Made by a program: the position numbers and the translations under genes
Notes under the pieces: model-generated
What the model saw: only the letters and a program-made list of their open reading frames with translations
What the model was told of the DNA's origin: nothing
Database searches by the model: none
Origin: an uncultured bacterium
GTDB lineage: Bacteria > Bacillota_I > Bacilli_A > RF39 > UBA660
Direction: 5' to 3'
Length of the DNA: 64,000 nucleotides
Assembly (NCBI GenBank): GCA_949285875.1
Contig: CASDZZ010000003.1
Coordinates: forward strand, 349-64,348
Shown here: positions 3,263 to 64,000 of the stretch, piece after piece
Layout of the letters: each line of letters begins with the position of its first letter
Numbering within the stretch: the first letter of the stretch is position 1

Positions 3263-4709
3263 GTGATGAAGGATAAGTTAAAACAAAGGAAAATATTAAT
3301 AATAGTACTAGCTGTAATACTTACGTTATCAGTGGGATATGCAATATTTAGTGAATCATTAAACATAAGTGGTTCAGCATCAACTGGAAGCACTAACTTT
3401 AATATCGTGTTTGATAGGGTTGGTAATATAAGAGAAGTAGAAGCAAGTAATACAACAGCAGAGATAAAAGAAAGTGGTAAAAAATTAGAGATAAATGTAC
3501 CCGGCCTTTCTATGCCAACAGCATATGCAATAATACCAGTTACAATAAAAAATAACGGAGATATAACAGCAAAGGTAAAAGAAATTAGAACAGAAGGACT
3601 TGATACTACTGATATAAAAGTAACTTGAAGTAAATATTAAAGTGATTTGGGATAGATCATCTACAAGTACAAGTGTAGAAGCTAGCTTTAGTATAGAAAT
3701 AGTATATGAACAAGTAGCAAGTGGTAGTGTTACAACAACTACACCAGTAGTTGATAACAGATTTATTTATGAAGGAACGAAATTAATGGGATTATCTGCT
3801 GAAGGAGAAGAATATTTTAAGCAATCAGAAAATAAAGAATTAATTATACCAGAAGGAACAACAGAAATAGCAGATGGAGCATTTTTTGTGCCTTATGGAT
3901 ATGAAGGGGAAAAACCAGATTTTTTGTTTTTTGAAAGTCTTTTAGCAGATTATATATTGAATAATTTAACTGATGAGGAAAAACTAAAATTTGAAAAAGA
4001 AAATGAACTTTTTTCAGCTATATCTGAGTATAATATTCAGAATTCTAGATTAAAAGATTATACTGTTAAATTTCCTAATTCTCTAATTTCTATCGGTAGA
4101 GGATCGTTTGCATCTCTAATGCTAACAGGAGATTTAATAATACCAAATAGTGTAAAAGAAATAGGTTCAATGGCTTTTACAGCAAATGGTTTTAATGGGA
4201 TTTTAAAATTATCAAACTCTTTAAGTAAAATAGATATTCAAGCTTTTGCCGGCAATCAATTTAGTGGAGGGTTAACTATTCCAGATAGTGTTGCAAGTAT
4301 AGAATTTAATGCTTTTTTTTCTTCTGGCTTTTCTAGTAACTTAGTATTATCAAAAAATTTAAAAAAAATTGATATGATGGCTTTTGCAGCTAACCAATTC
4401 ATTGGGGGTTTGGTAATACCAGATAGCGTAACGGAAATTGGAATGAGTGCTTTTGGAGAATCTGGTTTTACCGGTACATTAACATTACCAAATAGCATAA
4501 CAAAAATTGAGAATGGTACATTTTCTGGCACTGGTTTTACAGGAGAATTATACATACCAGATACTGTAACAGATATAGATTATAATGCTTTTTGGGATTG
4601 TAATAATTTAACATCAGTATCAATACCATCAAGCACAACATATAAAGAAGTTGCATCTGGTGGTGATGATCCATCCTTTCCAACAGGAATACCAATAAAT
4701 AAAAGATAA
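3263..4709 (+). pseudogene. Frameshifted paralog of the BspA-type LRR surface protein at 59571..60998
   Basis: ORFs 3263..3628 and 3642..4709 are colinear with the single 486-aa ORF at 59538..60998. The break is at GTAACT TGA (3626..3628). The second frame is +1 relative to the first and is open from 3624. Compared with the intact copy, the segment encoding YEGLLLEDVLNPNDER is missing. LRR_5-like repeats (IPxSVxxIGxxAF) follow. Confidence 0.75.
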
Positions 4710-13868: not shown

Positions 13869-14093
13869 GTTTTAAGCGATGAAAGAAAGAGTAAAGCAAT
13901 ACTTATTTAAGAGAGCATGGTAAGGTGAAAGCATGTATAAGTAGACCTTTATAAATGGTTCTGGAGCTTAACTTATCGATATGTAGGTAAGTTCGTTGCT
14001 ATGCGTTAAATAGATTGAGTGCGTATTTATTAAATACGAATTAAGGTGGTACCGTGGACTAAAGTTCATCCTTTAATTAGGATGAGTTTTTTT
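13869..14093 (+). promoter_or_regulatory. T-box riboswitch leader (candidate Met specifier AUG) controlling nudix-metG
   Basis: Stem I elements AGAGAG and GGTGAAA. The candidate specifier is ATG at 13955..13957, followed by G. The T-box sequence AATTAAGGTGGTACCGTGG is at 14039..14057. The terminator hairpin TCATCC/GGATGA with a T-run is at 14065..14093. Confidence 0.88.
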
Positions 14094-14119: not shown

Positions 14120-14569
14120 ATGAATGAAAAGATTCCTAAAGTAGGATTAGGAGTTATAGTTCTTGATAAAACTGGAAAAGTTTTATTAATTTTAAGAAAT
14201 AGTGATGCTAAGAAGGCTGATAGTGAAATGAGGCTTGAAGGGACTTGGACTCTTCCAGCCGGAAAAATGAAATATGGTGAAACATTATTTGTAGCTGCTA
14301 AAAGAAAAGTTAAAGAGGAGACTAATCTTGACGTAAGTAATTTAGAGGTTATTTCAGTAGCAGATGATATAAATAACTTTGCACATTATGTTACTATTGG
14401 TTTAGTAGCGGATAGTTATGAAGGAGAAGTATCTTTAGGAGATACCGAAGAGCACGTAGACTATAGATTCTTTGATATGGATAAGATGCCTCCTAACTTA
14501 TGTGAACCCTCTATGAAAATAATTAGAAATTACAGACAAAATAAAATATATAACGGGAAGGAAAATTAA
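14120..14569 (+). CDS. NUDIX hydrolase
   Basis: Nudix box GKMKYGETLFVAAKRKVKEETNL (GX5EX7REUXEEXGU pattern); 149 aa. Its stop lies 1 nt before the metG start. Confidence 0.85.
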   Translation: MNEKIPKVGLGVIVLDKTGKVLLILRNSDAKKADSEMRLEGTWTLPAGKMKYGETLFVAAKRKVKEETNLDVSNLEVISVADDINNFAHYVTIGLVADSYEGEVSLGDTEEHVDYRFFDMDKMPPNLCEPSMKIIRNYRQNKIYNGKEN

Positions 14570-14570
14570 T

Positions 14571-16130
14571 ATGGATAAGAAAAAATATTATATAACAACA
14601 GCAATAGCATATACTTCTGGTAAACCTCACATAGGAAATACTTATGAAATAGTACTTGCAGATTCTATTGCAAGATATAAAAGACAAAAAGGTTATGACG
14701 TTTATTTTCAAACGGGAACTGATGAACATGGTGAAAAAATAGAATTAAAAGCTAAGGAAAAAGGAGTAACTCCTAAAGCGTTTGTTGATGATATTGCAGG
14801 TGAAATAAAAAGAATATGGGATGTTATGAATACTTCCTATGATAAGTTTGTTAGAACAACTGATCCACATCATGAAAAAATAGTACAAAAGATATTTGAT
14901 AAAATGTATGAAAAAGGAGATATTTATAAAGGAGAATATTCGGGTTTATACTGCACTCCTTGTGAAAGCTTTTGGACTGAATCACAACTAGTAGATGGTA
15001 AATGTCCAGACTGCGGAAGAGATGTAGAAACAAAAAAAGAAGAAGCTTACTTTTTTAAACTTTCTAAATACCAAGATAAGTTAGTAGAATATATAGAATC
15101 GCATCCTGATTTTATTGCTCCTGAATCAAGAAAAAATGAAATGTTAAACAACTTTATCAAACCAGGATTACAAGATTTATGTGTATCTAGAACATCATTT
15201 GATTGGGGAATTAAAGTAAATATAGACCCAAAACATATTGTTTACGTTTGGCTTGATGCATTAACTAATTATATCACTAACATAGGATATGACCCAGAAG
15301 GGTCTAGTGTGGAATTTAATAAATGGTGGCCAGCAGATCTTCACTTAGTTGGTAAAGATATAATTAGATTCCATACTATTTACTGGCCTTGCTTCTTATG
15401 GAGTTTGGATTTAGAGCTTCCAAAGAAAGTATTTGGACATCCTTGGCTTCTAACAAATAATGATAAAATAGGAAAGTCTAGAGGTAACGCAATATATGCT
15501 GATGACTTAGTAGATTTGTTTGGTGTTGATGCAGTAAGATATTATGTTCTTCATGAAATTCCATACGCAAATGATGGAAATTTAACCTATGATTTATTAA
15601 TCGAAAGAACTAATACTGATTTAGCTAATACGTTAGGTAACTTAGTTAATAGAACAATATCAATGGCTAATAAATATTTTGATGGTAACGTTACAAATAA
15701 GAAAGTAACTGAAAAGTTAGATACTGATTTAATTAACATGGTTAACTTGTTGGACGATAATGTAGAAGAAAAAATGGATAGGTTAGAAATAGGATTTGCT
15801 TTAGATCAAATATTTGACGTATTAAGACGTTTAAATAAATATATTGATGAAACAACTCCATGGGCTTTAGCTAAAGAAGAAGGTAAAAAAGATAGACTAG
15901 AAACGGTTTTATATAATTTGTTAGATTCTATTAGGGTATGTGCATATTTTCTAAGACCATTTTTAACTGAGACTTCTGATGAAATATTTAAACAATTAAA
16001 TATAAATGACGAAACGGATAAGTTTAATCCTAATAATACTTATAAAGATATGAAGCCAGAAGTATTATTTGCTAGAATAGATAAAGAAAAGAAAATGGAA
16101 GAGATAAAAAATTCAAATAGAAACAAGTGA
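14571..16130 (+). CDS. metG: Methionine--tRNA ligase (short form, no C-terminal tRNA-binding domain)
   Basis: HIGN (HIGH) motif, Zn knuckles CTPCESF...CPDCG, and KIGKSRGN in place of KMSKS; 519 aa. Confidence 0.95.
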   Translation: MDKKKYYITTAIAYTSGKPHIGNTYEIVLADSIARYKRQKGYDVYFQTGTDEHGEKIELKAKEKGVTPKAFVDDIAGEIKRIWDVMNTSYDKFVRTTDPHHEKIVQKIFDKMYEKGDIYKGEYSGLYCTPCESFWTESQLVDGKCPDCGRDVETKKEEAYFFKLSKYQDKLVEYIESHPDFIAPESRKNEMLNNFIKPGLQDLCVSRTSFDWGIKVNIDPKHIVYVWLDALTNYITNIGYDPEGSSVEFNKWWPADLHLVGKDIIRFHTIYWPCFLWSLDLELPKKVFGHPWLLTNNDKIGKSRGNAIYADDLVDLFGVDAVRYYVLHEIPYANDGNLTYDLLIERTNTDLANTLGNLVNRTISMANKYFDGNVTNKKVTEKLDTDLINMVNLLDDNVEEKMDRLEIGFALDQIFDVLRRLNKYIDETTPWALAKEEGKKDRLETVLYNLLDSIRVCAYFLRPFLTETSDEIFKQLNINDETDKFNPNNTYKDMKPEVLFARIDKEKKMEEIKNSNRNK

Positions 16131-23053: not shown

Positions 23054-24119
23054 ATGGAAACTTTTATTAAAGGGACTTATAAAAAAAATATTTTTTCTTC
23101 TAACGATGGTTTTACGGTCGGTTTAATTAAAATAAAGGATACTAATGATCAAGATTTAACAGATTATAATGATAAGTTGTTTACCTTTACCGGATTATTT
23201 GCGGAACTAAAACTTGAGGAAGATTACATTTTTTATGGAGAAGTAATTGATAATTTAAAATATGGATTACAGTATAAGGTTACTAAATACGAAAAGATTA
23301 TGCCTCAAGATAAAGATGGTTTAATAACATTTTTATCAAGTGATATATTTCCTAAAGTGGGTGAAAAAACCGCAAAAAATATTGTTGAATGTTTAGGAGA
23401 AAATTGCTTGGATAAAATTTCTAGTGATTATGAGTGCCTTCTTAAAGTGCCTAAAATGACAGAAAAAAAAGCTATGGAAATACACTCAAGATTAGTTAAG
23501 TATAACGAAAGTTACCAAACTGTTATTTATTTGGTTAATTTTGGTTTTAGCATGAAAGATGCTCTTAAAATTTATAACCATTATTATGAAGATACAATAA
23601 GAGTAGTAGAAAATAATCCATATGAGTTAATTGATACAATAGATGGTATTTCATTTAATAAAATAGATGAGCTAAGGGAAAAAACAAATGTTTCAGTTGA
23701 TGATGAAAGAAGAATTGAAGCTTTAATAATAAGTATAATGAAAAATATATGTTTTCAAAAAGGAGATACTTATTTAGACTTTAATACTATTTATAGTGCT
23801 GTTACGTCGGTTTATGAACTGGATATTAATGAAGAAAAGGTAAAATATTATTTAATAATGCTTTGCCAGTTGGGTAAAATAATAATAGAAGATGATAAAT
23901 ATATATTATATAGCTATTATAAAGCAGAAAATTATATAAGTACTTCAGTTTATAATATAACAAATAAAGAAGATGTTAAAATTAAAGATATAGATTTAAA
24001 AATAGAAAGGCTAGAACTTTTTTTTGATATAAAATATAATGAGGAACAAATAAAAGCTATAAAACAAGCATTGGTTAAGAATTTTTCTATTATAACGGGA
24101 GGCCCAGGTACGGGAAAAA
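23054..24119 (+). CDS. recD2: RecD2-type ATP-dependent DNA helicase, exon 1 (ends after the first base of the Walker A Thr codon)
   Basis: RecD2-like N-terminus ending ...FSIITGGPGTGK. The intron 5' end GTGCG starts at 24120. The track ORF's tail (SATSLVVK stop) is intron sequence. Confidence 0.88.
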
Positions 24120-24904
24120 GTGCGACAAGTTTAGTAGTCAAATAAACAAAGCTACTACATTATCTAAGATAATGAACTGATAGTCTGAGATGAGAATTGA
24201 TAGGGTAACGCCTTGAAGCTCACTGCTAATACTTCGACATGCAGGAGTTGGTAACAAACCTGTGTGAAGCTCGAGGAAGTCGGCTGAAGAACACCCTAGA
24301 ACAGAAAATTATTAAGTAATGTTGGTACAAAAGTGTCTAGAGACCGCCCGCAGGAAAGATAATAGAGTATGTTCAAGGAAAAATGAGTCAATAACTCATG
24401 TGTTTGATAGGTCGGGCATCTATAAAATAACTATGGTTAGAATGTATTCAAAATACTGACGAACCTCCGAATGTAAGTCTCGTAAAAGTGGAAAGAGTCG
24501 AAAGGGCTCGGGATAGTTATATGCCAGAGGGCAGACTGAATTTTTTCTAAGTTCGACCTTAATCGTTACAGGCGATTGCGGTATATCGGGATAGAGGAGT
24601 GAACCTAAGGTTATATGGTAAAAGATAAGGCTATCGGAACTTGGAATTATCCAACCTTAAGCTTTAAGGTTTAAGGTAGCAGAATCGAAAACATTTAATA
24701 ATGTATAAGTTATGCGTAATGGATAATAAGCGGTGGTATTACTTACGATGTTTCTTGTAATGAGAAACGGAGGGATGACCACTAGTCATAATATAAGATT
24801 AACGTAAACTTACATCAAAATTTTATATAGCAAATTGCGAGTAAGAATAATAAACTTCGTAAGTTGGGAAGTTAACTCTTCGCAGAAATCGAGGTGAATA
24901 CGTT

Positions 24905-26845
24905 ATGAAAGATAAAAACTTTACACGAAAAGAAAAATCTGCATATTATTCACAATGTTTGCAGATGTACCAAGGTTTATATGAGTTAACAAAAGAACAA
25001 ATTAAAGATAAAGGTTATGCTTCGCATAAAAGCTTAATGTATAAAATAGCTTCTACAAAGAATATAGTGAATGCAATAAGAAGTATTTCAAAAAACACAG
25101 GCGGAAGAACCGCTGGTGTGGATGGAACTACCATTAGGGATGTTAAGAAATATAATAACTCAGAAATGGTAAGAAGAATACAAAATAAACTTCTAGGTAA
25201 CAACTATCAACCTAAAAGAATTAAAAGAGTATATATTCCTAAAAATAATGGGGATTTAAGACCTCTTGGAATTCCAACAATAGAAGATAGAATTATACAG
25301 CAAGCAATAAAGCAAGTACTTGAACCAATAGCAGAAGCTCAATTTTCAAGAGTAAGCTCAGGATTTAGACCAGGAAGGTCTGCTCATAATGCAATGGCAC
25401 AAGTAGACAATATGATACAAATGTCTAAAATGAGTTGGTGTGTCAAATGTGACATAAAAGGATTCTTTGACAATGTTGACCATAATAGATTAATTAAAGC
25501 ATTGTGGAGTTTTGGTATAAGAGACAAAAAAGTTCTTAGTATTATCAAAACAATATTAAAAACAGAAATAGTAGATATGGATGGCACAGTAACAAAACCT
25601 GAAAAAGGAACGCCACAAGGCGGAGTTATAAGCCCGCTACTAGCAAATATTTACTTAGATGCTTTAGACAAATGGATAGAATCTCAATGGACACATTTTA
25701 AAACAAGGCACACATATTACTCAGATATAAGAGATAAGAGCTATCAAAGACCAAATCAAAATAAGAAATATAGAGCACTTCGAAGTAACTCAAAAATGAA
25801 AGAAATGTATATTATTCGATATGTAGATGATTTTTTGATTTTTACAAACAGTAAAGAAAATGCAGAGAAAATAAAACATGCTACTATATTATGGTTAAAA
25901 CAAAATTTAAAACTTGAGTGTAGTCTTGAAAAAACAAAGCTCATAGACCTTAAAAATGAATTTGCAGAATTTCTGGGATTCAAATTTAAAATATCCAATA
26001 GAGTAAAAGTAACATCTAAAGGAAATAAAAAATATATTATAGATTCACATATTGCAGATAAGTCGCTTAAAAATATAAAAGAAAAGTTGAACAAACAAAT
26101 CGATTATATAGCTACTGCAAATGATAATATAACATTTCATAAAGCCATACAAATTTACAATAGCATGGTAATGGGCATTCATAATTATTTCTGTGTTGCT
26201 CATGGAGTTAATAATGATTTAAGCCGAATTGGCTGGGATATTCAAAGGAAACTCTATAACAAAGTTCTCAAAGATTATCCAGACAGAAACTCTACACCAG
26301 AAAATTATCTTCCGTGTTACCAGATAATAGTAAATAAATATGGTACTTCCAAAGAGCTAAAATGGTGCAAAGGAATTCCGATAATTCCAATCAGGTATGT
26401 ACAATTTAAAGCTCCAATAAGCTTTAATGAAGGTTATAATCTATATGATATAGAAAATAATCTAAATACAATAAACCTTGAAGATATGGCAAAAATAATT
26501 GCATATTTTTCAAGTGATGTGCATAATGAACGAGACACAACGGAATTATACGAAAACAAAATCAGTAGATTAGTTAGCCAAAAAGCTCTCTGTTATATTA
26601 CGAAAACACCGTTGATATATGGAGAAATAGCTACACATCATATACTTCCTGTACATCTTGGTGGAACTGATAAATATGAAAATATTATCATAATACAAGA
26701 AAGAGTTCATGAACTAATACATAATTCAGAATCACTACAAGAAGCATTAGAGAAGCTCAAATCGGAATATTCAACGGGAAAAAGAATCGAAAAGATGTTT
26801 ACTGAAATCTATATTAAAGCGAACCCTGAGAAATCTAAAATTTAA
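24905..26845 (+). CDS. Group II intron-encoded protein: reverse transcriptase, maturase (X) and HNH endonuclease domains
   Basis: RT blocks RPLGIPTIEDRIIQQA, DIKGFFDNVDH, GTPQGGVISPLLANIYL and RYVDDFLIF (YxDD). The C-terminal HNH reads HHILPVHLGGTDKYENIIIIQERVHELIH. RBS GAGGTGA. Confidence 0.95.
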   Translation: MKDKNFTRKEKSAYYSQCLQMYQGLYELTKEQIKDKGYASHKSLMYKIASTKNIVNAIRSISKNTGGRTAGVDGTTIRDVKKYNNSEMVRRIQNKLLGNNYQPKRIKRVYIPKNNGDLRPLGIPTIEDRIIQQAIKQVLEPIAEAQFSRVSSGFRPGRSAHNAMAQVDNMIQMSKMSWCVKCDIKGFFDNVDHNRLIKALWSFGIRDKKVLSIIKTILKTEIVDMDGTVTKPEKGTPQGGVISPLLANIYLDALDKWIESQWTHFKTRHTYYSDIRDKSYQRPNQNKKYRALRSNSKMKEMYIIRYVDDFLIFTNSKENAEKIKHATILWLKQNLKLECSLEKTKLIDLKNEFAEFLGFKFKISNRVKVTSKGNKKYIIDSHIADKSLKNIKEKLNKQIDYIATANDNITFHKAIQIYNSMVMGIHNYFCVAHGVNNDLSRIGWDIQRKLYNKVLKDYPDRNSTPENYLPCYQIIVNKYGTSKELKWCKGIPIIPIRYVQFKAPISFNEGYNLYDIENNLNTINLEDMAKIIAYFSSDVHNERDTTELYENKISRLVSQKALCYITKTPLIYGEIATHHILPVHLGGTDKYENIIIIQERVHELIHNSESLQEALEKLKSEYSTGKRIEKMFTEIYIKANPEKSKI

Positions 26846-26880
26846 ACAGTAAGTGAAAAGTTAACTTATATTATGATGGC

Positions 26881-26914
26881 ACGCCGTGTGCGGTGAAAGT
26901 CGCATGCACGGTGT
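26881..26914 (+). ncRNA. Group II intron domain V (catalytic hairpin)
   Basis: ACGCCGTGTGCGGTGAAAGTCGCATGCACGGTGT matches the 34-nt DV consensus (GAGCCGUAUGCGAUGAAAGUCGCACGUACGGUUC) at most positions. The triad reads CGC rather than AGC. Confidence 0.85.
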
Positions 26915-26963
26915 AGAGCGGGGGAAAAGCTGGAGATAATATCAAAGGCTTACCTATCGCTAT

Positions 26964-28087
26964 CTACAATAATAAAAGGTATTGTTCAACTTTATAAGAT
27001 GGTTTATGGTTATTCTCCAGATAAGTTAAAAGAAAAAATGGTTCTTTTGGCACCTACGGGAAGAGCGGCCAAAAGAATGAGTGAAGCTTGTAATTATCCT
27101 GCGTGCACGATTCATAGATATTTAAAATGGAATAAAGAAACTGGAAAATTTGGTTTTGATGAACGAAATAAAGTTTCGGCAGAATTTATTATAGTAGATG
27201 AAACCAGTATGATAGATACAGAACTACTATATAACTTTCTAAAAGCACTACCTAGTAATATTAAGCTTGTGTTTATAGGAGATTATAATCAGCTTGAAAG
27301 CGTTGCTCCAGGGAAAATTTTAAAAGATTTAATTGAATCTGAAATAGTAAATACGATATTTTTAAAAGAAATATACCGTCAAGAGCAAAACTCTTATATT
27401 ACTGAACTTGCTTATGAAGTTAATAAGAGTGAGCTAGCCGAAACTTTTTTAGATAAAAAAGATGATTATAATTTTATAAGTTGCACGGATGATGAAATTT
27501 TAAAAATAACTTGTTTGTTAGCTAAAAAGGCAATGGATAAAGGTTATGATTTGCAAAACATTCAGGTTCTAGCTCCTATGTATAAAGGTATTAACGGTAT
27601 AGATAATTTAAATAAAATTTTGCAAAATATATTCAATCCGAGAGATAATTTAAAAAATGAAACTTATGATGCTGATATAATATATAGAGAAGGAGATAAA
27701 ATTCTTCAGTTAGAAAATATGCCAGATGATAATGTTTTTAATGGAGATATTGGTTTTATTGAAAAAATAGATGGTAAAGATATTTTGGTGGATTTTGATG
27801 GAAATAAAGTTATTTATAAACCAAAAGATTATAGAATGATTAAACATGGATATGCCATAAGTATTCATAAGGCTCAAGGAAGTGAATTTGAAATCGTTAT
27901 AATGCCGGTTACTAATGCTTATAAAATGATGCTTTATAAAAAAATCGTTTACACTGGTATAACAAGAGCTAAAAAATCTTTGATGTTAGTAGGCGATCCA
28001 AAGGCTTTTTGCAAGGCTGTATATAATACTCAAAACAAAGAAAGGAATACTTTATTGAAAACTTTATTAATTAGTAATATTTTATAG
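26964..28087 (+). CDS. recD2: RecD2-type helicase, exon 2
   Basis: Continues in frame as (T)TIIKGIVQLYKMVYGY...LLAPTGRAAKRM, IIVDETSMID (Walker B), and a SH3-like/2B region up to VYTGITRAKKSLMLVG. Confidence 0.88.
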
Positions 28088-28430: not shown

Positions 28431-28991
28431 ATGGAAAAGAAAATTAACAGAATGTGTAACGTATCTTTAATAATGTCTATAATTTTTATAGTAATAGGTT
28501 TATTTTTATTTATTAAACCAGATACTACAATATCTATTATATCTTTTGTAATAGGAGGTGCATTATTACTTAGTGGAATTTTTTCTACTTATAGATATTT
28601 TTCTTCTGATGAAATTATAAATGCTTTTAATTTTGATCTTATTTATGGGGTATTACTTTTTATAGCAGGTGTTTTTATGATTTTTAATCCTACTGCATTA
28701 GCTACCTTATTTCCAATAATTTTAGGTATTTGGATTATTATTAACAGCGTAACAAAATTTCAATATGCTAGAGTTTTAAAAAAAGCTAAAAATGAAGATT
28801 GGGTATATACTACTTTTATATCAATTTTAACGTTAATTTGGGGGATAGTGCTTTTATATAATCCTTTAAAATCTATTTTAGCAATAACACAAATTATAGG
28901 AGTATTTATAATTGTATATGCTGTTTTAGATATATTTGATAATATGCTTATAAAGAAAAATATAAAAAATATTTTAGATATGTTTAAATAG
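28431..28991 (+). CDS. HdeD/DUF308-like polytopic membrane protein
   Basis: 186 aa with ~6 TM helices in the paired pattern typical of the DUF308 (HdeD) family. Confidence 0.6.
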   Translation: MEKKINRMCNVSLIMSIIFIVIGLFLFIKPDTTISIISFVIGGALLLSGIFSTYRYFSSDEIINAFNFDLIYGVLLFIAGVFMIFNPTALATLFPIILGIWIIINSVTKFQYARVLKKAKNEDWVYTTFISILTLIWGIVLLYNPLKSILAITQIIGVFIIVYAVLDIFDNMLIKKNIKNILDMFK

Positions 28992-29078: not shown

Positions 29079-30944
29079 GTGAAGAAGGTAAATGATAAGG
29101 GGTTTACACTAGTAGAATTATTAGTAACAATAGCAATTATGCTTACTATATTAGGTATTGCTATTGTAAGTTATGTAAATATTAGTAGTAGGAAGAAAAC
29201 AGAGGCTTATGAGTCAATCAAAACACAAATAGAAGCTGCAGCAGAACAGTATTTTCAGTCAAATAGTTATTTATTAAATGAATTAAACAGTAATGGGTCA
29301 ACGGCGATTGTAAGTATTGGAGAGCTTGTTAAAGCGGATTATTTAAATAAAGTAACTGACCCAAGGGATGGTACAACATTAAATGAGTGTAATTATGTTG
29401 AAGTTAGTAAAAATAATAATGGTTATAATTATGATTTCGTTGATGACATAGCTAGTGGTGAAGAATGTTCTAATAAAATTTTTACGGTTGTAACAGAAGC
29501 AGGCGCTCCCTCAGCTAAAATTAAATTTTATAATGAAAGTTGGCAAGAAGTAGCACCTGCATCTTCTGGTTGGTTTAATTCGTCTGTTCTTGGAGGAGAA
29601 AATAAACCTTTATTAGTAGGTATCGAAGTAGATACTAAAGGTAATGGAACGATAGATAAAGTTGAAGTTAATAACCAAGTAGTAAGTGAAAACAATAATG
29701 TTTATAGTTATAAGGTACAAGAGGATGGCATTAAAAACAATGTTCAAATAGTGGTTGCAAATAAAGCTGGGAAAACTGTTACATATAGAACAAGTTGGAA
29801 AAAAGATACGACGGTACCTAATGGAAATACATCTATAGCAAGTACAAAAAGTTATAATTCAAACATTGTTAATTTATCTATAACTAATTTTACAGATGCT
29901 ACTTCAGGAATTGCTAAGGCTGTAATACCTAGCTCTGAAATAGATGCTAATTTATTCAGTAATGGAAGTTATACAAAGAAAAATTATAGTTTAAGTTCAT
30001 CTTTAGATGGTAAAAGTTATTCTGTATTAGTAAAATTATATGATAAAGCTGGAAATGAAAGAAAATTGAGTACATTAAATTATTTAGTATATAAGGAATG
30101 TTCAGTAACTTCTTCTAAAGTAAGTACTGGAAATTGGTCTAAATGTTCTAAAGCTTGTGGTGGAGGTACTCAATCTAGAACTAACGTAACAATGGTTGTA
30201 GATAATAATACAAGTAAGACTTGCTCATCAAAAAATAATATAGAAACACAAAAATGTAACGTAGCTGCGTGTGATACAACTCCACCAAATTGTCCACAAA
30301 TTTGGGTTTCTTATAAAGGTGGAGGATGGCAAACTTTAAATACAAGTCGTTCATGGCAAAATCAAAATATCAAATTTAAAGTAAGACCTACGCAAGATAC
30401 TGCTAAATGGGTTTGGAGTACGAATAACTCTGCTGAAGAAGGTAAAACTATTTCTGGAAATGCTGAAAGAAGTGATATCGTATTATCTTTAGAAGGTTCT
30501 AATAGGGCATTATATTTAACGGTATATGATGCAGCGGGAAATAAACGAAACTGTAATTACACAGGATTTAAAATAGATAAAACGACACCTAATGTTGATT
30601 ACCATAGAAATCCTGTTCCAAAATCATGTGGAGGAAAATCAGGTATAAATTCTGGCTATAAGGTTAGTGATAGCTTATCTGGATTAGCATCGGTTAAAGA
30701 TTATTTTAGTTTGACTACTTTATCTTGGAGTGATGGATATGCTATAAATAGATCTATAACTGCTGGTCAAAAAACATTTGAAAAACAAAATACTACATGG
30801 TCTGGCGCTGCTGGTTCTTGCGGAGGAGATTATAATAAACCTGTAAGTGGAAAGGAATACTATCATTATTTAAAAGCTTGTGATGTTGCTGGTAATTGTA
30901 CAGGAGTTAATAAAACTCAAAAAACTTCAAAAATTGGCGGATAG
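29079..30944 (+). CDS. Giant modular type IV pilin 1 (621 aa): prepilin leader, pilin head, Ig-like modules and a TSP1-like Cys module
   Basis: GTG start after AAAGGAGG. The leader is MKKVNDKG|FTLVELLVTIAIMLTILGIAIV (Gly-1, Phe+1, Glu+5). Downstream motifs DTTVP, DTTPP and DKTTP, with SGI/SGL...YDxAGN, are typical of bacterial Ig-like modules. Confidence 0.85.
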   Translation: MKKVNDKGFTLVELLVTIAIMLTILGIAIVSYVNISSRKKTEAYESIKTQIEAAAEQYFQSNSYLLNELNSNGSTAIVSIGELVKADYLNKVTDPRDGTTLNECNYVEVSKNNNGYNYDFVDDIASGEECSNKIFTVVTEAGAPSAKIKFYNESWQEVAPASSGWFNSSVLGGENKPLLVGIEVDTKGNGTIDKVEVNNQVVSENNNVYSYKVQEDGIKNNVQIVVANKAGKTVTYRTSWKKDTTVPNGNTSIASTKSYNSNIVNLSITNFTDATSGIAKAVIPSSEIDANLFSNGSYTKKNYSLSSSLDGKSYSVLVKLYDKAGNERKLSTLNYLVYKECSVTSSKVSTGNWSKCSKACGGGTQSRTNVTMVVDNNTSKTCSSKNNIETQKCNVAACDTTPPNCPQIWVSYKGGGWQTLNTSRSWQNQNIKFKVRPTQDTAKWVWSTNNSAEEGKTISGNAERSDIVLSLEGSNRALYLTVYDAAGNKRNCNYTGFKIDKTTPNVDYHRNPVPKSCGGKSGINSGYKVSDSLSGLASVKDYFSLTTLSWSDGYAINRSITAGQKTFEKQNTTWSGAAGSCGGDYNKPVSGKEYYHYLKACDVAGNCTGVNKTQKTSKIGG

Positions 30945-30964
30945 TTTGACTTTGAGTTTATTTT

Positions 30965-31002
30965 AAGATTACATCAATAGTTAGTTGATGTAATCTTTTT
31001 TT
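30965..31002 (+). terminator. Intrinsic terminator after pilin 1
   Basis: 13-bp perfect stem AAGATTACATCAA / TTGATGTAATCTT, 7-nt loop, T-run. Confidence 0.85.
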
Positions 31003-31075
31003 AAGAAAATTATAAGTATTAATTGATAAAATTTATAAAATGTGTTATCTTATTAATATATGATAGAGGTGTATT

Positions 31076-32965
31076 ATGTTAAATAAAAAAGGATTTACTT
31101 TAGTAGAACTATTAGTAACAATAGTAATTATGCTTACTATATTAGCTCTTGCAATTGTAAGTTATGTAAATATTAGTGATAGAAAAAAAACTGAAGCCTT
31201 CGAATCAATAAAAACTCAGGCAGAGGCTGCAGCGGAACAATATTTTCAGTCAAATAGTTATTTTCTAAAAGAATTGGATGATGATAATGTTGCCTATGTT
31301 AGCATAGGTAGACTTGTTAAAATGGATTATTTAAACAAAGTTGTAAATCCTTTGACAGGAAAAGTTTTAGATGAATGCAGTTATGTTAAAGTAGAGAAAA
31401 AAAATTATGGTTATGTATATACATTTGTAGAAGAACCTAGAGACAAAGAAGAAGATGGAACTTGCGATAATAATAATTTTACTGTTGTTCAAGATAAATC
31501 GCCTAGTGCTCCAACAGCTAAAATTGAATTTTATTCTTTGAAAAATGGGTTGGAAAAAAAGATAGAGGATTATTCTAATTATTGGTTAAATATTGAGCAT
31601 TTAGGAGAAAATGGTATACTCAGAGTAAAAGTTATCCCTACTTCGGAATCTCCAATAACTTCTGTAACTTATAAAACAACAAATGGTACAACCACAGAAG
31701 CTGAAAAAAATAATAATTATTATCAATTTGATGTTGATGATGATGGTGTGGAAAGCAACGTGCCTATTACGGTTACTAATAGTTCTGGAAAAGTATATAA
31801 AGAAGAAATCGCTTGGAAAAAGGATACTGTGGCTCCTACGGGAACAATTAGTTTAAAAAGCACTGCTTCTAATTATTCATCCAATGTGGTAAATATTTCT
31901 TTTAATTTAAAGGATGGCGACGGCGGTTCGGGTATTGAAAAACTTGATTTTAATGCAAAAGATGATTGGGAACTCCAAAATGGAACTACTGACTCAGTAA
32001 AAACTTTAAGTATATCAAATTATAGTTTAAATGATGAGATGGATGGCTCTTCATATGCCGTAAGTGCTGAAATATATGATGTTGCTGGAAATAAGGGAGT
32101 TACTAATTCACAGTCTTATGTTTTATATGAAGATTGTACAACAAACGTAAAAGTTACCAACGTAATAGGGCCTAAATGGTCAAGTTGCGTTGATGGATTA
32201 AAAATTTATCTTGATGTTAAAGTGACAGATGATACTGTAACTGGAAATCGTTGTGAAACTTATGCGGATGGATTAACTGCTACTTGTGAAACAACACCAC
32301 CTGATTGTCCTTCTCTTACTACTTCTAGATTACCTGGTGATACTGGTAAGAATGGGTGGTATAATAAAGGAATAAGATTTAACATAACGCCTGCTAAAAA
32401 TACTTCAAAATGGGTATTTAAAACTGATAATGGTAGTGGTGGTTATACAACATGGAAGACTCATACAGGTACGGCTTCAAATAGTGACCATACCTTGACA
32501 GGAAATGGTGCTGAAAGAATGGTTCAAATAGAAGTTTATAATTCTAGTGGAGCTAAAAGAACTTGTAATTATGGACCGTATAAAATAGATACTACTCCTC
32601 CAACAATAAAATATAATTATTATACAGCTTCAGCTTGTCCAGGAGATCCTTCGCCAAGTTCTAGACCAGGAGTGCAAGCTAGTTTTGTTGTAACTGATAA
32701 TTTATCAGGATTAAATTCAAACTCTGTAAAATATTATTATGATGGTAAATCTAGTTGGACTAACCAAAGTATTTATATTTCAGGAAAAATCAGCGGTACT
32801 CAGATGTCTTTTTCGAAGACTAGTACATATTCTAATTATGGTAATTGTAAAGTAGGAAGTTCCGTTAGTAAGAACATATGTTATTATAATCATATAAGAG
32901 CAACTGATGTAGCAGGAAATGTTACAACTGTTAACTCTAGTAGTTGTAAATATCCTGGCCCATAA
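31076..32965 (+). CDS. Giant modular type IV pilin 2 (629 aa), paralog of pilin 1
   Basis: Leader MLNKKG|FTLVELLVTIVIMLTILALAIV. It has the same module order as pilin 1 (CETTPPDCP, YKIDTTPPTI, ATDVAGN). RBS AGAGGTG; putative promoter TTGATA...TGtTATCTT. Confidence 0.85.
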   Translation: MLNKKGFTLVELLVTIVIMLTILALAIVSYVNISDRKKTEAFESIKTQAEAAAEQYFQSNSYFLKELDDDNVAYVSIGRLVKMDYLNKVVNPLTGKVLDECSYVKVEKKNYGYVYTFVEEPRDKEEDGTCDNNNFTVVQDKSPSAPTAKIEFYSLKNGLEKKIEDYSNYWLNIEHLGENGILRVKVIPTSESPITSVTYKTTNGTTTEAEKNNNYYQFDVDDDGVESNVPITVTNSSGKVYKEEIAWKKDTVAPTGTISLKSTASNYSSNVVNISFNLKDGDGGSGIEKLDFNAKDDWELQNGTTDSVKTLSISNYSLNDEMDGSSYAVSAEIYDVAGNKGVTNSQSYVLYEDCTTNVKVTNVIGPKWSSCVDGLKIYLDVKVTDDTVTGNRCETYADGLTATCETTPPDCPSLTTSRLPGDTGKNGWYNKGIRFNITPAKNTSKWVFKTDNGSGGYTTWKTHTGTASNSDHTLTGNGAERMVQIEVYNSSGAKRTCNYGPYKIDTTPPTIKYNYYTASACPGDPSPSSRPGVQASFVVTDNLSGLNSNSVKYYYDGKSSWTNQSIYISGKISGTQMSFSKTSTYSNYGNCKVGSSVSKNICYYNHIRATDVAGNVTTVNSSSCKYPGP

Positions 32966-32988
32966 AAATTGTTTATTGATGAAAAAAG

Positions 32989-33023
32989 CAAAGATAATTT
33001 AAACATAACTTCTTTGTTTTTTT
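32989..33023 (+). terminator. Possible weak terminator after pilin 2
   Basis: CAAAGA/TCTTTG stem with a 16-nt loop and a T7 run. Confidence 0.4.
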
Positions 33024-33086
33024 AATTTTTTTATTGAAAACTATTAATGGTTATGGTATCATATCTATGAAGAATAGAGGTGTTTT

Positions 33087-34982
33087 ATGTTAAACAAAAA
33101 AGGTTTTACGTTAGTAGAATTATTGGTTACAATAGCTATTATGTTAACAATTTTGGGCATTGCAATTATAAGTTTTGTTAGTTTGAGCAATAAAAAGAAG
33201 CAAGAATCATATGAACTCGTAAAAGATCAAATTGAAGAAGCTGCAAAACAATATTTTGAAACTAACGAATATTTGTTTGGTGGTGTTATTGATGGTTCTA
33301 CAGGTGAAATTTCTCTTGGAAAACTAGTAGGGGAAGACTACTTAAACAAAGTAACTGACCCTAGAACAGGAAAGCCATTTTCTTATTGTACAGTTGTTAG
33401 AGTGACAAAAAATGGAAATTCATATGATCTAAAACTTGATGAAAGTACTGTAGATACTTCTGAAACAAGTTGCGATTCGGATAGCTCTGTTGTTATAACA
33501 GAACCTGGAGCGCCAAAAATTGATTTGTCGGTAACTGGAATCAAGGGAAAAAATGATTGGTATGTAAAACAGGATGTAAAAGTAACTGCAAATATAGACG
33601 CGGATGCTGCTCCCATATCTAATATTGGTATATGTGAAGGTGTAGACCACTGTGAGAATTTTTCTAATGTGGGTAATTTGAATTTGAAACAAGAAAAATC
33701 TTTTGGAGAAACTTCAAAAAAAACTGTTGGATACGTGGTAACTAATTTGGCAGGTAAGAGTGCTAAAGCATGGGTAGATTTCAAATTAGATAAAACTGCT
33801 CCTACTTTAGTTACTAAAACTGAGAAATCTGACTGGACGAATAGTGATACTGTAAGCTATAGCTCAAGTATTAATGACAATCTTTCTAAAATTTCTTCTG
33901 TAGTTCAATATTGGAATAAAACAGATTTAAATGAGTCTCAAGCCAATAGTAGTAATTATAATTGGAATGGTAGCTATTATAATAATAAAAAAGATGGGAC
34001 AAAAACTGAAGATGAAAATTTAGTAAAAGGAAAAGAAAGCTACACAGCAACTGGTAAATTTAGTGGTGAAGGGGTTAGAAAGATTATTTATAAAGCTTGC
34101 GATATGGCTGGCAACTGTGCTTATAGTAATGAAGCTGTAGCTCGTATAGATAGGACAGCACCTACTTGTACTATTAATTTAAATTATGGTACTAAGGGAA
34201 ATAAAATTAATGGCATTCAGTGGTATTTGCCTAAACAATATGTTGGTGTAAATTTGAAAAATATGAATGATGACATGAGTGGTTTAAAAGAAAACACATA
34301 TGGTTTATCAACAAAAGCAGAAGATTTTAATAAAAATATTTGGGCTGCTCAGTATGAAACTAGTAAAGTTACTTGGTATGGTAATGTTATGGATAATGCT
34401 GGTAACGTTGGAAAATGTTCATCAACTTTTGCAGTTGAAACTTCAGTATCATTTGCATTCAACGATACTAAATCTGCAGGAGCTACTGCGGTAAAAGGAA
34501 CTGGAAAAGGAAAACCAATTTTCGGCACTAGAACTGATGGTGATGGTTTTACAACAGAAAATACTTGTTCTTATGGTAAGTGTAGTACTTCAAGATGTAC
34601 GGTAGATGGAAAAGCTTGCCCAAATGAGTATTTTGCAAAGTCTTGCATGTTTGTAGGTGATCATTTATCTTATTTTGATATTAAAGCAATATCAGCTGGT
34701 GGTAGTAAAACGTATGGGGTTCATACTACTCCTGGTATAACTGAAAATGGTCTTCATGTTGAAGTTGTAAAACATAATGGTATTGCAGGTGAAAGACAAA
34801 AATGTCCAAACGGGGCTAGTCAAGGCACGTATGATGCTTTTAAGTGCGGTATTGCAAGTGGCGGTGGCACTGTTAATATGACAGTATATAATTTTACTTA
34901 TACAACACCTGCAGGATTAAAAGCTAGCAATTCAATAACTTTATACACTCAATACATGACTAATTGTGGTTATAGTTATTAA
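33087..34982 (+). CDS. Giant modular type IV pilin 3 (631 aa), with divergent C-terminal modules
   Basis: Leader MLNKKG|FTLVELLVTIAIMLTILGIAII. The pilin head is conserved up to about residue 135. Distinct modules follow (KLDKTAPTL, RIDRTAPTC) and then a Cys-rich C-terminus. Promoter TTGAAA-17-TATCAT; RBS AGAGGTG. Confidence 0.85.
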   Translation: MLNKKGFTLVELLVTIAIMLTILGIAIISFVSLSNKKKQESYELVKDQIEEAAKQYFETNEYLFGGVIDGSTGEISLGKLVGEDYLNKVTDPRTGKPFSYCTVVRVTKNGNSYDLKLDESTVDTSETSCDSDSSVVITEPGAPKIDLSVTGIKGKNDWYVKQDVKVTANIDADAAPISNIGICEGVDHCENFSNVGNLNLKQEKSFGETSKKTVGYVVTNLAGKSAKAWVDFKLDKTAPTLVTKTEKSDWTNSDTVSYSSSINDNLSKISSVVQYWNKTDLNESQANSSNYNWNGSYYNNKKDGTKTEDENLVKGKESYTATGKFSGEGVRKIIYKACDMAGNCAYSNEAVARIDRTAPTCTINLNYGTKGNKINGIQWYLPKQYVGVNLKNMNDDMSGLKENTYGLSTKAEDFNKNIWAAQYETSKVTWYGNVMDNAGNVGKCSSTFAVETSVSFAFNDTKSAGATAVKGTGKGKPIFGTRTDGDGFTTENTCSYGKCSTSRCTVDGKACPNEYFAKSCMFVGDHLSYFDIKAISAGGSKTYGVHTTPGITENGLHVEVVKHNGIAGERQKCPNGASQGTYDAFKCGIASGGGTVNMTVYNFTYTTPAGLKASNSITLYTQYMTNCGYSY

Positions 34983-34987
34983 AATTA

Positions 34988-35015
34988 AAAGAGGAATTTT
35001 TAATCCTCTTTTTTG
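34988..35015 (+). terminator. Intrinsic terminator after pilin 3
   Basis: AGAGGA / TCCTCT stem with flanking A-run and T-run. Confidence 0.65.
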
Positions 35016-35016
35016 T

Positions 35017-35045
35017 TGCTAAAATATAGTAATTTTGTTATAATA
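35017..35045 (+). promoter_or_regulatory. SigA-type promoter of the Ala T-box leader
   Basis: TTGCTA, a 17-nt spacer, then TATAAT with TGt (extended -10). Confidence 0.55.
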
Positions 35046-35051
35046 TTTCTG

Positions 35052-35258
35052 TATTAAATTGATGATGAAAAATGAGTAGGTAATGTTTCTTTTAATAGAG
35101 AGTTAGTGATTGGTGAAAACTAACAAAGAATATTACTCGAAGCTATTTTCTAGAGTGATTAATAATCACCGGTTTTAAAAACCGTTATCTAAATTAAGAA
35201 AAAATTAGGATGGTACCACGGCCTTTCGTTCCTAAGCGATGGGCTTGGTACCTTTTTT
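35052..35258 (+). promoter_or_regulatory. T-box riboswitch leader (Ala specifier GCU) controlling P-loop kinase-alaS
   Basis: AGAGAG and GGTGAAAA stem I elements. The specifier context is GAA-GCT-A at 35139..35145. The T-box AAATTAGGATGGTACCACGG is at 35202..35221. A long terminator stem (GGTACCA.../...TGGTACC) is followed by T6, ending at 35258. Confidence 0.9.
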
Positions 35259-35272
35259 ATAGGAGGAAAAAT

Positions 35273-35827
35273 ATGGAATTTATAAAAAGAAATCCAGTAA
35301 TATTTATAGTTTCTGGTAAGGCAAATGCAGGGAAAGATACTGCTTGTGAACTTATTGATAATTATGTTAAATTAAAAGGGTTAAAAGCAGTTAACCTACA
35401 ATTTTCTTCGTACATAAAGATGTATGCAAAAGTAATATCAGGTTGGGATGGACAAGAAGATACTAAACCTAGAAGCTTACTACAACAACTAGGAACAGAT
35501 ATTATTAGGGATAAAATTGATAATGAGTTTTTTATAAAAAGAATAATTGGTGATATAAAAGTATATTCTTATTATTTTGATTTTGTTACTATAAGTGATG
35601 CAAGACTTCCTGAAGAAATTAATTCTATAACAAAGAATTTTGATAATGTTGTAAGAGTAAGAATAGAAAGACCTAATTTTGAAAATAATTTGAATAATAA
35701 AGAAAGAAAGCATCGTACTGAAACCGCTTTGGATGATTTCGATAACTATGATTATACAATCATTAATGATGGGACAATCGAAGAATTGAATGATAAACTA
35801 AAGAAAATTGTAGATGAGGTGTTATAA
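35273..35827 (+). CDS. P-loop kinase resembling the deoxynucleoside monophosphate (dNMP) kinase family
   Basis: The true start is ATG 35273 (RBS AGGAGG 6 nt upstream). The track's start at 35210 lies inside the T-box terminator. Walker A is VSGKANAGKDT, and the LLQQLGTDIIRD motif is typical of dNMP-kinase-like proteins. Confidence 0.65.
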   Translation: MEFIKRNPVIFIVSGKANAGKDTACELIDNYVKLKGLKAVNLQFSSYIKMYAKVISGWDGQEDTKPRSLLQQLGTDIIRDKIDNEFFIKRIIGDIKVYSYYFDFVTISDARLPEEINSITKNFDNVVRVRIERPNFENNLNNKERKHRTETALDDFDNYDYTIINDGTIEELNDKLKKIVDEVL

Positions 35828-50914: not shown

Positions 50915-51147
50915 ATGTCATTTGCTTTGAACAAGAGGAGTAAACTAATTTAATATTATAGAGAGCTAACGATAGGTGGAAGTTAGTATATTATTTTGTT
51001 GAAGGTAGCTTGGGAGCTTAATTTTTGAAAGTAAGTAGAAAATTACGTGTGCCGCGTTAAGGCTATTAAGTGTATATCTTTAAGATATAAATTAAGGTGG
51101 TACCATGGGCTTAAAGTCCATCCTTTAGATAGGATGGATTTTTTTAA
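50915..51147 (+). promoter_or_regulatory. T-box riboswitch leader (probable Val specifier GUA) controlling valS
   Basis: AGAGAG and GGTGGAA stem I elements. The specifier region is GAAGGTAGC at 51001..51009, with GTA at 51005..51007. The T-box AAATTAAGGTGGTACCATGGG is at 51089..51109. The terminator TCCATCCT/AGGATGGA with T7 is at 51117..51145. Confidence 0.88.
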
Positions 51148-59494: not shown

Positions 59495-59570
59495 AATGAT
59501 GTTTTTTTTATTGTATTCTTGACCATAATTATTAAAAATGTTAGTATTTAATTATAAGGAAGGTATTGAT

Positions 59571-63578: not shown

Positions 63579-64000
63579 ATGAGTTTGCAACTAATTAATG
63601 GAATATTTGTGTTTATAATAGGAACTGTTTTTGGTTCCTTTTATAACGTAGTAGGTTATAGAGTACCTAATAATATGTCGATATCGTTTCCAGCTTCACA
63701 TTGCCCTAATTGCAATCATAAATTAAAATTTTATGAGCTTATTCCTATTTTTTCTTATATATTCCTAAGAGGAAAATGTTTTAAGTGTAAGGAAAAGATT
63801 TCTTTATTTTATCCTTTTTTTGAATTTTTGACAGGGATATCATTTTTACTTTCTTATATTGTTTTTGGCTTTAGTTTTGAATTTCTTATCGCTATAACAT
63901 TCCTTTCTATTTTAATCATAATTACGATAAGTGATTTAAAATATTATATTATTCCTGATGAAGTTTTAATTGTAGGGATAATTTTGATTATAGTTGAAAA
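63579..64000 (+). CDS. pilD: Prepilin peptidase (A24 family, PilD/ComC), 3'-truncated by the window edge
   Basis: My own translation gives MSLQLINGIFVFIIGTVFGSFYNVVGYRVP...HCPNCNHKL...LRGKCFKCKEKIS...ITISDLKYYIIPDE. It has the zinc-binding CxxC...CxxC pair and the first catalytic Asp region. RBS AGGAGG. Confidence 0.9.
   Translation, partial: MSLQLINGIFVFIIGTVFGSFYNVVGYRVPNNMSISFPASHCPNCNHKLKFYELIPIFSYIFLRGKCFKCKEKISLFYPFFEFLTGISFLLSYIVFGFSFEFLIAITFLSILIIITISDLKYYIIPDEVLIVGIILIIVE

Follow-up and report, generated by a model that had tools for sequence, protein, structure and literature searches.

The stretch of DNA analysed here, called the window throughout, comprises 64,000 nucleotides of contig CASDZZ010000003.1 (assembly GCA_949285875.1, positions 349 to 64,348, forward strand) from an uncultured bacterium of the order RF39 (GTDB lineage Bacillota_I; Bacilli_A; RF39; UBA660). 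It carries three adjacent genes on the forward strand, G1, G2 and G3, which encode proteins of 621–631 amino acids (aa) with prepilin leaders and lie exactly where a preliminary description of this DNA had placed such a tandem trio (Table 1). The evidence supports the view that their products are genuine type IV pilin-like proteins that carry a grafted multi-module tail.

Prepilin signal and shared head

Read from the sequence, the N-terminus of all three proteins consists of a short basic leader, Gly-1 followed by Phe+1, Glu+5 and a hydrophobic helix, with the consensus start G↓FTLVELLVTI(A/V)IMLTIL. Leaders found among the trio are MKKVNDKG↓FTLVELLVTIAIMLTILGIAIV and MLNKKG↓FTLVELLV..., the leader of G1 being MKKVNDKG↓F. 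Both prepilin profiles that had been proposed for checking this reading score above their curated cut-offs in all three proteins, PF07963 (N_methyl) with 29.0, 26.4 and 27.6 bits for G1, G2 and G3 (cut-off 21.2) and TIGR02532 with 25.4, 23.9 and 24.9 bits (cut-off 16.3). A regular expression applied to all six frames found no further open reading frame (ORF) with a prepilin motif in the window. More specific identities were rejected: models of ComGC–ComGG (NF040999, NF040982, NF041013, NF041002) gave 15–22 bits against cut-offs of 49–80 and covered the generic N-terminus only, and models of the type II secretion system (T2SS) pseudopilins GspG–K (TIGR01708, TIGR01710, TIGR01707, TIGR01711) gave 11–22 bits against cut-offs of 44–89.

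The signal is part of a common pilin head, for which the residues listed in the preliminary description are indeed invariant across the trio. About 50 positions are invariant in residues 1–130 of the G1–G3 alignment, including Q57, Y58, F59, N62, Y64, S79, G81, L83, V84, D87–V92, P95, G98 and C104, and G8, F9, E13 and L14 are invariant in an alignment of 28 family members. Head identity among the three proteins amounts to 51–69% (69% between G1 and G2, 51–61% between G3 and the other two), whereas the tails of G1 and G2 are 33% identical and the tail of G3 shows no detectable identity to the others by BLASTP. In the nucleotide sequence, the initial 196 nt of G1, G2 and G3 (84% and 68% identity) form the region's single long repeat.

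In an AlphaFold2 (AF2) model of G1 computed from an alignment of 28 family sequences (mean predicted local distance difference test, pLDDT, 80.7), alpha-1 is a continuous helix of about 50 residues (11–61), followed by three to four strands up to about residue 121 (75–79, 106–112, 115–121; pLDDT 73–90). The head contains a Cys pair, of which C104 is invariant and C130 near-invariant. A profile of the head aligns with the whole of alpha-1 of solved filament pilins, namely Geobacter PilA-N, Myxococcus xanthus PilA, MshA and Streptococcus sanguinis PilE1 (E-values 2.5e-7 to 4e-4). The beta part of the head gave no sequence match, as is usual among pilins, and in phmmer searches of PDB sequences with G1 and G3 the pilin matches were limited to the N-terminal alpha-1 region.

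Modular tails and the giant pilin family

The tails had been described as repeated Ig-like blocks bounded by D(K/T)TxP and SG(I/L)...D.AGN signatures. These blocks are real, as seen both in profile-profile matches and in the all-beta modules of the AF2 model, and the tail of G1 has four Ig-like modules (A–D); what had gone unnoticed is a thrombospondin type 1 (TSP1) repeat (TSR) between B and C. In the profile-profile comparison of the G1 modules, B resembles C with 97% probability (E = 1e-11), A resembles C with 78% and A resembles B with 37%, and module D has in common with the other modules only the D.AGN end. All four are all-beta in the model, in which the TSR forms a three-stranded element. 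Matches of Pfam and NCBIfam models to the Ig-like modules (Big_13, Big_3_2 and an OmpL47-type barrel) all remained below threshold, and a Foldseek search with the whole G1 model returned generic multi-Ig/FN3 ectodomains (TEP1, RPTPs and, as stalk adhesins of bacteria, a GhpA fragment, SiiE and an ice-binding adhesin), with nothing specific among them and no functional lead.

The TSR of G1 scores above the cut-offs of two Pfam models, with 27.6 bits for PF19030 (cut-off 23.8) and 24.9 bits for PF00090 (cut-off 21.6), and reaches 32.4 bits with PF19028, under that model's cut-off of 41. Its core reads WSKCSKACGGGTQSR plus further Cys, with cysteines present at 356, 360, 382, 393, 398 and 405, and it has one Trp only of the WxxWxxW ladder. 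Weak phmmer matches at the same residues lead to the TSRs of ADAMTS-5, C6, semaphorin-5A, BAI1 and the circumsporozoite protein (CSP). TSP1 profiles find no match in G2 or G3; G2 is co-linear with G1 (40% overall identity), and its TSR position is degenerate, with WSSC kept and the CGxG core lost.

For G3, the head and the Ig-like modules extend to about residue 444, and the remainder is a different, Cys-rich beta domain that had likewise escaped the preliminary description. Folded alone with 10 homologues, this C-terminal domain gives an AF2 model with a pLDDT of 80.8 and a predicted template modelling score (pTM) of 0.79. Foldseek searches of PDB and BFVD with this domain gave nothing significant (best E 0.035–0.055, TM ≤0.27), and no Pfam model matches it. 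In 28 family representatives, proteins of 414–998 aa, it occupies the extreme C-terminus without exception. A word-indexed search with the G3 C-terminal fragment came back empty because the 90%-identity cluster of G3 is represented by a 35-aa JGI fragment, which hides the domain from this type of search; exhaustive HMMER found the relatives.

G1 is thus a modular pilin in the sense of Raynaud et al. (2021) by its TSP1 repeat and four Ig-like modules, as are G2 and G3 through their homologous Ig-like modules, and G3 also through its separately folding C-terminal domain. No LPXTG or other wall anchor is visible in the sequences of the three C-termini. Each protein contains 12–16 cysteines, many of them conserved as pairs (C104/C130 of the head, the TSR, the C-terminal domain of G3), which points to disulfide formation outside the cytoplasm of this anaerobic gut monoderm.

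A word-indexed search for relatives returned 56 proteins, all unnamed and nearly all with a PF07963 match, and exhaustive HMMER returned 148 representatives at E≤1e-30 and 350 at E≤1e-10, these family counts being representatives of 50% identity clusters; public names were sought for eight members and none exist. The 190 family sequences that were retrieved have a median length of 611 aa and reach 1,839 aa. A prepilin motif is present in 176 of them and the head is detectable by BLASTP in 178, whereas by the same means modules A, B, C and D are detectable in 26, 19, 8 and 12 sequences (C-terminal in 8 of the 12 with module D) and the G3 C-terminal domain in 28. TSR cores occur in 15 sequences, G1 and 14 others, at positions 345–666 and in one to three copies per protein. 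Glu5 and a full-length alpha-1 are strictly conserved over about 180 members. Heads within one genome are 51–86% identical and those of different genomes 30–60%, while tails within a genome share at most 38% identity or none that is detectable; the greater likeness of heads within a genome suggests recent duplication or gene conversion. The overall pattern is a head conserved as a carrier, with a stalk that is shuffled and terminal domains that interchange. In a more distant Bacilli metagenome-assembled genome (MAG; GCA_032085635.1, locus L061, 7533–12265), two tandem proteins of about 750 aa lie between polA and a DnaJ-domain gene; each has two TSP1 repeats, one of them shows merely a faint N_methyl match, and their architecture equals a pilin-TSP1-TSP1 entry found once in Dataset S1 of Raynaud et al.

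Locus, expression signals and pilus machinery

The order of housekeeping genes in the window is Bacillus-like (lepA-hemN...hrcA-grpE-dnaK-dnaJ; recD2; alaS-mltG-ruvX-...-greA; dnaG-sigA), and the pilin genes occupy, as reported earlier, the site between recD2 upstream and the T-box leader of the kinase-alaS operon downstream. Regarding the trio as an island of its own, however, does not agree with the recD2–alaS interval in relatives, a comparison that the preliminary description had itself put forward. The arrangement of a DUF308 gene, one to three giant N_methyl proteins, the DNMK kinase and alaS is syntenic in four other MAGs or assemblies of related gut Bacilli, probably of order RF39, with three giant pilin copies in L002 (ENA assembly; 692, 730 and 694 aa), two copies in L003 and L004 (GCA_910580185.1 and GCA_949956995.1; 582 and 672 aa) and a single copy of 622 aa in L063 (ENA scaffold). 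Marks of mobility are absent from the pilin locus, where neither a tRNA nor an integrase or att-like flanking repeat was found; its GC content of 0.29–0.34 lies in the window range of 0.22–0.35 without a strong compositional break, and GC skew and strand bias run on through it. Elsewhere, family genes are found alone or two together between other housekeeping genes, for example at the tsf-frr and polA-dnaJ junctions. The giant pilins are a lineage-wide gene family of variable copy number and not a strain-specific insertion.

Each gene has its own ribosome-binding site, as described (AAGGAGG for G1, AGAGGTG for G2 and G3). The claim that each also has its own terminator stands firmly for G1 (z -5.1) and moderately for G3 (z -3.3), and the hairpin behind G2 is weak (z -1.9). 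Extended -10-like elements are found in every upstream gap, yet promoter-like hexamers are no commoner in the region than in shuffled sequence (42 observed, 43.6 expected), which leaves the promoter-like element claimed for each gene merely plausible. Because the terminators differ in strength and the promoters are unenriched, separate transcription units, as postulated for all three genes, are likely at the G1–G2 boundary and at the 3' end and plausible only at the G2–G3 boundary. An Rfam match to 'mir-451' at 32903–32968 was rejected as noise (E 0.085; 24 bits, gathering score 66.5).

The only pilus machinery genes in the window are, as stated before, pilC and pilD, 26.6 kb downstream of the pilins. 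The PilC-like platform protein has an unusual N-terminal extension of about 260 aa (61588–62380), in which a hydrophobic or transmembrane segment is followed by about 200 K/E-rich residues that are probably coiled or disordered; the extended length (603–611 aa) is conserved in hundreds of homologues from gut MAGs, some with a PF28597 match. Full-length PilD, found on Logan contig L057, has 262 aa and the domains A24_N_bact and Peptidase_A24. There is no ATPase gene (pilB/pilT) in the window, which agrees with the preliminary description, but its treatment of this absence as a weakness does not hold: since the source contig, 64,831 bp long, breaks off about 0.8 kb beyond the window and L057 likewise stops just after pilD, the absence is uninformative, and the missing ATPase is probably an assembly artefact.

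Two relatives, L058 and L060, have the same dnaG-sigA-trmK-yqfQ-pilC-pilD order and PilC proteins that are 63–65% identical. Directly after pilD, both encode a T2SSE ATPase of 428–435 aa with a Cys4 zinc motif, and then two prepilins, one with KG↓FFLAE and 170–171 aa, the other with KG↓LTLVE or KG↓VTLVE and 157 or 377 aa (L058, 14632–15622; L060, 14052–15690). The second prepilin of L060, the one of 377 aa, has a non-pilin tail, so that tail grafting also occurs inside the machinery locus. The ATPase of the relatives is matched best by GspE and PilB models (488 bits) and scores 278.7 bits with ComGA (cut-off 300). It stays below every equivalog threshold, as does PilC, so that the system can be classed as a type IV filament machine but not placed demonstrably in a subtype, be it Com, type IVa pilus or T2SS. 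No PilT-type retraction ATPase was found near pilC-pilD in the relatives examined.

The PilC-like protein of the window is 64% identical to one from Candidatus Aphodocola excrementigallinarum. Candidatus Aphodocola corresponds to GTDB CAG-594 in family CAG-433 of order RF39 (PMC8035907), and this similarity would place the window in RF39. No member of the order has been cultured, and it is marked by genome reduction and numerous auxotrophies (PMC12306168). Among the matches listed, the related loci L005–L007 come from MAGs of 'uncultured Bacilli' from water-deer colon and Hadza gut; the ORFs upstream of L005 encode glycosyltransferases and a deacetylase and no pilus genes.

Several further observations concern the surroundings of the pilin genes. 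The T-box leader at their right border scores 86.4 bits (E 2.9e-18), under the Rfam gathering score of 93, and overlaps the 5' end of a listed 205-aa ORF (35210–35827). The DNMK-like kinase probably starts at the ATG at 35274, giving the 184 aa called in relatives, and from this start and the placement of the T-box it follows that the T-box would control the kinase-alaS operon. Two more T-boxes lie in the window, at 13870–14076 (before NUDIX-metG) and 50918–51128 (before valS). In L002, a 155-aa ORF without a Pfam match (14378–14845) is situated between the second and third giant pilin genes. recD2, a single gene of 728–729 aa in L002, L003 and L063, is split in the window by a group II intron (24172–26963) into halves at 23054–24145 and 26999–28087; the intron is recognised by Rfam group-II-D1D4-5 (24172–24426, 125.7 bits) and Intron_gpII domain V/VI (26879–26963, 57.1 bits) and encodes an intact reverse transcriptase of 646 aa (ORF 24905–26845). 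The window also contains two BspA-type leucine-rich-repeat proteins (3642–4709 and 59538–60998; PF13306, E 1e-33), candidates for additional proteins of the cell surface or of adhesion in this organism.

Table 1. Features of the pilin locus and of the pilus machinery genes in the window.
Feature	Position	Strand	Basis and remarks
G1, modular prepilin, 621 aa	29079..30944	+	ORF list; GTG start
Parts of G1: alpha-1 and beta head, ~aa 1-130; Ig-like modules A (aa 131-243), B (244-340), C (401-500), D (501-621)
TSR of G1, aa 344-400, between modules B and C	30108..30278	+
Intrinsic terminator 3' of G1, 14-bp stem and U run	30965..31004	+	minimum free energy -16.3 kcal/mol, z -5.07
G2, modular prepilin, 629 aa	31076..32965	+	ORF list
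Weak A/U-rich hairpin and U run 3' of G2	32982..33030	+	z -1.89; 12/200 shuffles fold equally well
G3, modular prepilin, 631 aa	33087..34982	+	ORF list
Cys-rich beta domain of G3, aa 445-631, candidate distal binding module	34419..34979	+	AF2 model
Terminator 3' of G3, 9-bp stem and U run, bidirectional	34987..35018	+	z -3.27
DUF308/HdeD-like membrane protein, conserved left neighbour of the pilin locus	28431..28991	+	Pfam; conserved in L002, L003, L063
T-box leader of the DNMK-like kinase/alaS operon, conserved right border	35053..35236	+	RF00230
PilC/GspF-type platform protein, 660 aa	61588..63570	+	PF00482, 2 stretches; NCBIfam GspF/PilC-like aa 265-657
pilD (prepilin peptidase), 5' part, CPNC...CFKC zinc motif	63579..64000, runs off window	+	translation

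Predicted role and relation to known pilins

With a probability of roughly 0.6, G1–G3 are modular type IV pilins that are processed by PilD and act as low-abundance, tip-displayed adhesive subunits. As the motif suggests, PilD would cut after Gly-1 and probably N-methylate Phe+1; the hydrophobic alpha-1 helix would hold the protein in the membrane, and the head, with its strictly conserved Glu5, would dock into a filament that the PilC platform assembles together with a PilB/GspE-type ATPase. Judging from the relatives, the filament body would consist mostly of the small pilins of 157–171 aa encoded beside the ATPase, and because a tail of about 490 aa appears unfit for packing in that body, the giant pilins would most likely be rare and either located at the tip or sparse. 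A flexible Ig-like stalk, roughly 15–20 nm long by typical domain sizes, would then present the terminal binding module, in G1 the TSP1 repeat together with the terminal Ig-like module and in G3 the orphan Cys-rich domain. The head would serve as a universal carrier and the tails as shuffled, fast-diverging effectors, so that a genome would hold one to three adhesive specificities, or more, as alternatives with separate expression signals. An adhesin-like tail is supported by the string of Ig-like modules, by the TSP1 matches over two Pfam cut-offs and by terminal domains that stay terminal on variable stalks.

Some points weigh against this reading. Processing, incorporation, tip location and adhesion are steps that we infer, and the tip location in particular is suggested by sterics and by analogy. 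The ATPase and the small pilins were seen in the relatives with 63–65% identical PilC and not in this MAG, and the organism is uncultured. The pilin genes are unlinked to the machinery, being 26.6 kb away in the window and at unrelated housekeeping junctions elsewhere, so that it is the signal motif alone that ties the two together in function. Furthermore, the Ig-like modules match known structures only generically and the C-terminal domain of G3 matches none, and a ligand is not predictable.

The scattering of the genes among housekeeping genes, apart from the machinery, would suit proteins that are anchored by a pilin head outside long filaments, with the class III signal serving PilD-dependent membrane insertion or a short pseudopilus stub and the stalk crossing the wall; archaeal 'bindosome' proteins, which have class III signals, offer an analogue. 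Among the structural matches, SiiE and the ice-binding adhesin, both of which span the wall, likewise combine a stalk with a terminal domain, a stalk of four or five domains could span a monoderm wall and, with no C-terminal wall anchor visible, the N-terminal helix would be the sole anchor. Such a role is nevertheless unlikely. Conservation of Glu5 and alpha-1 over the family is expected for subunit packing, and an anchor alone would not require it; small pilins and a complete extension machinery are retained in the lineage, and the match of the head profile to polymerising major pilins along the entire alpha-1 favours real polymerisation over mere anchoring. More doubtful still is the broader proposition that the conserved head is no pilus subunit at all and functions as the universal anchor of PilD-dependent surface display in the reduced-genome RF39 Bacilli, as a bacterial counterpart of the archaeal bindosome. 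If display by an anchor were true, dozens of shuffled Ig-stalk proteins, with eukaryote-like TSP1 repeats and a terminal domain of unknown fold among their modules, would stand on the membrane or on very short pseudopilus stubs and form the main and rapidly diversifying adhesin repertoire towards a host or partner cell.

It is improbable that the giant pilins are major subunits which homopolymerise into thick 'bottle-brush' fibres with a dense layer of Ig-like stalks, even though their heads resemble major pilins along alpha-1 with Glu5 in all, each gene has a strong ribosome-binding site and its own terminator, and no small pilin is found within the 64-kb window. The axial rise of type IV filaments is about 1 nm. 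At the axial rise of a filament, a tail of about 55 kDa per subunit would be sterically hard to accommodate, as has been argued for S. sanguinis PilB and PilC (PMC8179133, PMC9934059). The relatives moreover have conventional prepilins of 157–171 aa beside the ATPase, and copy number and tails vary freely among close relatives, which would be unusual for a major structural subunit.

A role as minor pilins of a competence (Com-type) pseudopilus, for DNA uptake and not adhesion, is very improbable. It would fit a monoderm Bacilli host, a compact machinery without a PilT-type ATPase near pilC-pilD in the relatives, an ATPase that scores just under the ComGA cut-off and weak N-terminal matches that include ComGC/GD/GE/GF. 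However, none of the pilins reaches any ComG equivalog cut-off, the matches being confined to the generic N-terminus, and ATPase and PilC score higher with GspE/PilB and GspF/PilC than with ComGA and ComGB; we also know of no DNA-binding role for Ig-like, TSP1 or Cys-rich extracellular modules. Finally, a horizontally acquired island or phage receptor-binding proteins between recD2 and alaS are scarcely credible, as the slightly higher GC content than in many neighbouring kilobases, the group II intron 2 kb upstream in recD2 and the variable copy number are set against the occupation of this site by homologous pilins in L002, L003, L004 and L063, a locus without tRNA, integrase or flanking repeat and with continuous GC skew and strand bias, and no match in the viral structure library BFVD.

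As noted in the preliminary description, modular pilins are already known, and S. sanguinis PilB and PilC are the closest characterised proteins to G1–G3. PilC consists of a pilin module with an Ig-like and a ConA-type lectin domain and PilB of a pilin module with a vWA domain; Glu5 is retained in each, models place the two with PilA in a complex at the filament tip, and they have been shown to bind glycans and matrix proteins (PMC8179133, PMC9934059). As in S. sanguinis, the host of G1–G3 is a monoderm that encodes several large pilins, the class III signal contains Glu5, a small pilin module is followed by modules of other kinds (in PilC an Ig-like spacer), and display at the tip and adhesion are proposed. 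Unlike PilB and PilC, G1–G3 have neither a vWA nor a lectin domain and no homology in the tail, and orthology was rejected, as no vWA or lectin model of Pfam or NCBIfam matched at E≤1. They are also larger (621–631 aa, compared with 50.5 and 52.8 kDa for processed PilB and PilC), with four or five extra modules instead of one or two. Their genes form separate units outside the pilus locus, unlike those of S. sanguinis, where the minor pilin genes lie in the pil locus.

Large modular pilins as such have been catalogued before. Raynaud et al. (2021) listed more than 1,200 modular pilins in 264 architectures, with multi-domain proteins of up to 860 aa (PMC8179133); the 860-aa protein is from Falkowbacteria and has 12 repeats, and IPR012902-IPR000884-IPR000884 (pilin-TSP1-TSP1) is listed once (PMC8179133, Dataset S1). 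The earlier judgement that the trio is far beyond what has been described therefore does not stand, all the more as the family itself has members of more than 1,200 aa. Like the catalogued proteins, G1–G3 have an N-terminal IPR012902 region followed by several domains that are not pilus-specific, and P0050 or a relative, with a pilin module and two TSRs, has the catalogued pilin-TSP1-TSP1 architecture. In contrast, the catalogued proteins are database architectures without analysis, and G2, G3 and most of the family would escape such a survey because their modules fall under the Pfam thresholds. This is in line with the prediction of Raynaud et al. that many more modular pilins exist whose modules are invisible to signature databases (PMC8179133).

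A pilin module followed by a linker and all-beta domains is also found in CofB of enterotoxigenic Escherichia coli and TcpB of Vibrio cholerae, type IVb minor pilins that are located at the tip, initiate assembly and bind a partner (PMC8179133). Unlike G1–G3, they are trimeric proteins of diderm systems, with type IVb signals and with genes inside the pilus operon, and neither phmmer against PDB sequences nor Foldseek gave a sequence match or a specific structural match between them and G1–G3. The TSP1 domain is familiar mainly from matrix proteins of animals and adhesins of apicomplexans. The G1 repeat resembles eukaryotic TSRs (TSP-1, ADAMTS, properdin, apicomplexan TRAP/CSP) in its CSxxCGxGxxxR core, six flanking cysteines and, in the model, three-stranded form, and differs from them in having one ladder Trp, a bacterial host and a position embedded between Ig-like modules.

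Taken together, G1–G3 belong to a family that is new, large and unstudied and that falls into an established class, the modular type IV pilins. This family lends support to the predicted under-count of such pilins and leaves the concept of type IV filament functional diversification unchanged. What deserves attention is the display of a bacterial TSP1 repeat on a pilin, a terminal domain without a structural relative and the investment by reduced-genome gut Bacilli of the RF39 type of about 6 kb at this locus, and more elsewhere in the genome, in fast-diversifying giant pilins. The TSR region of G1 and the C-terminal domain of G3 are concrete recombinant targets for glycan- or matrix-binding screens.

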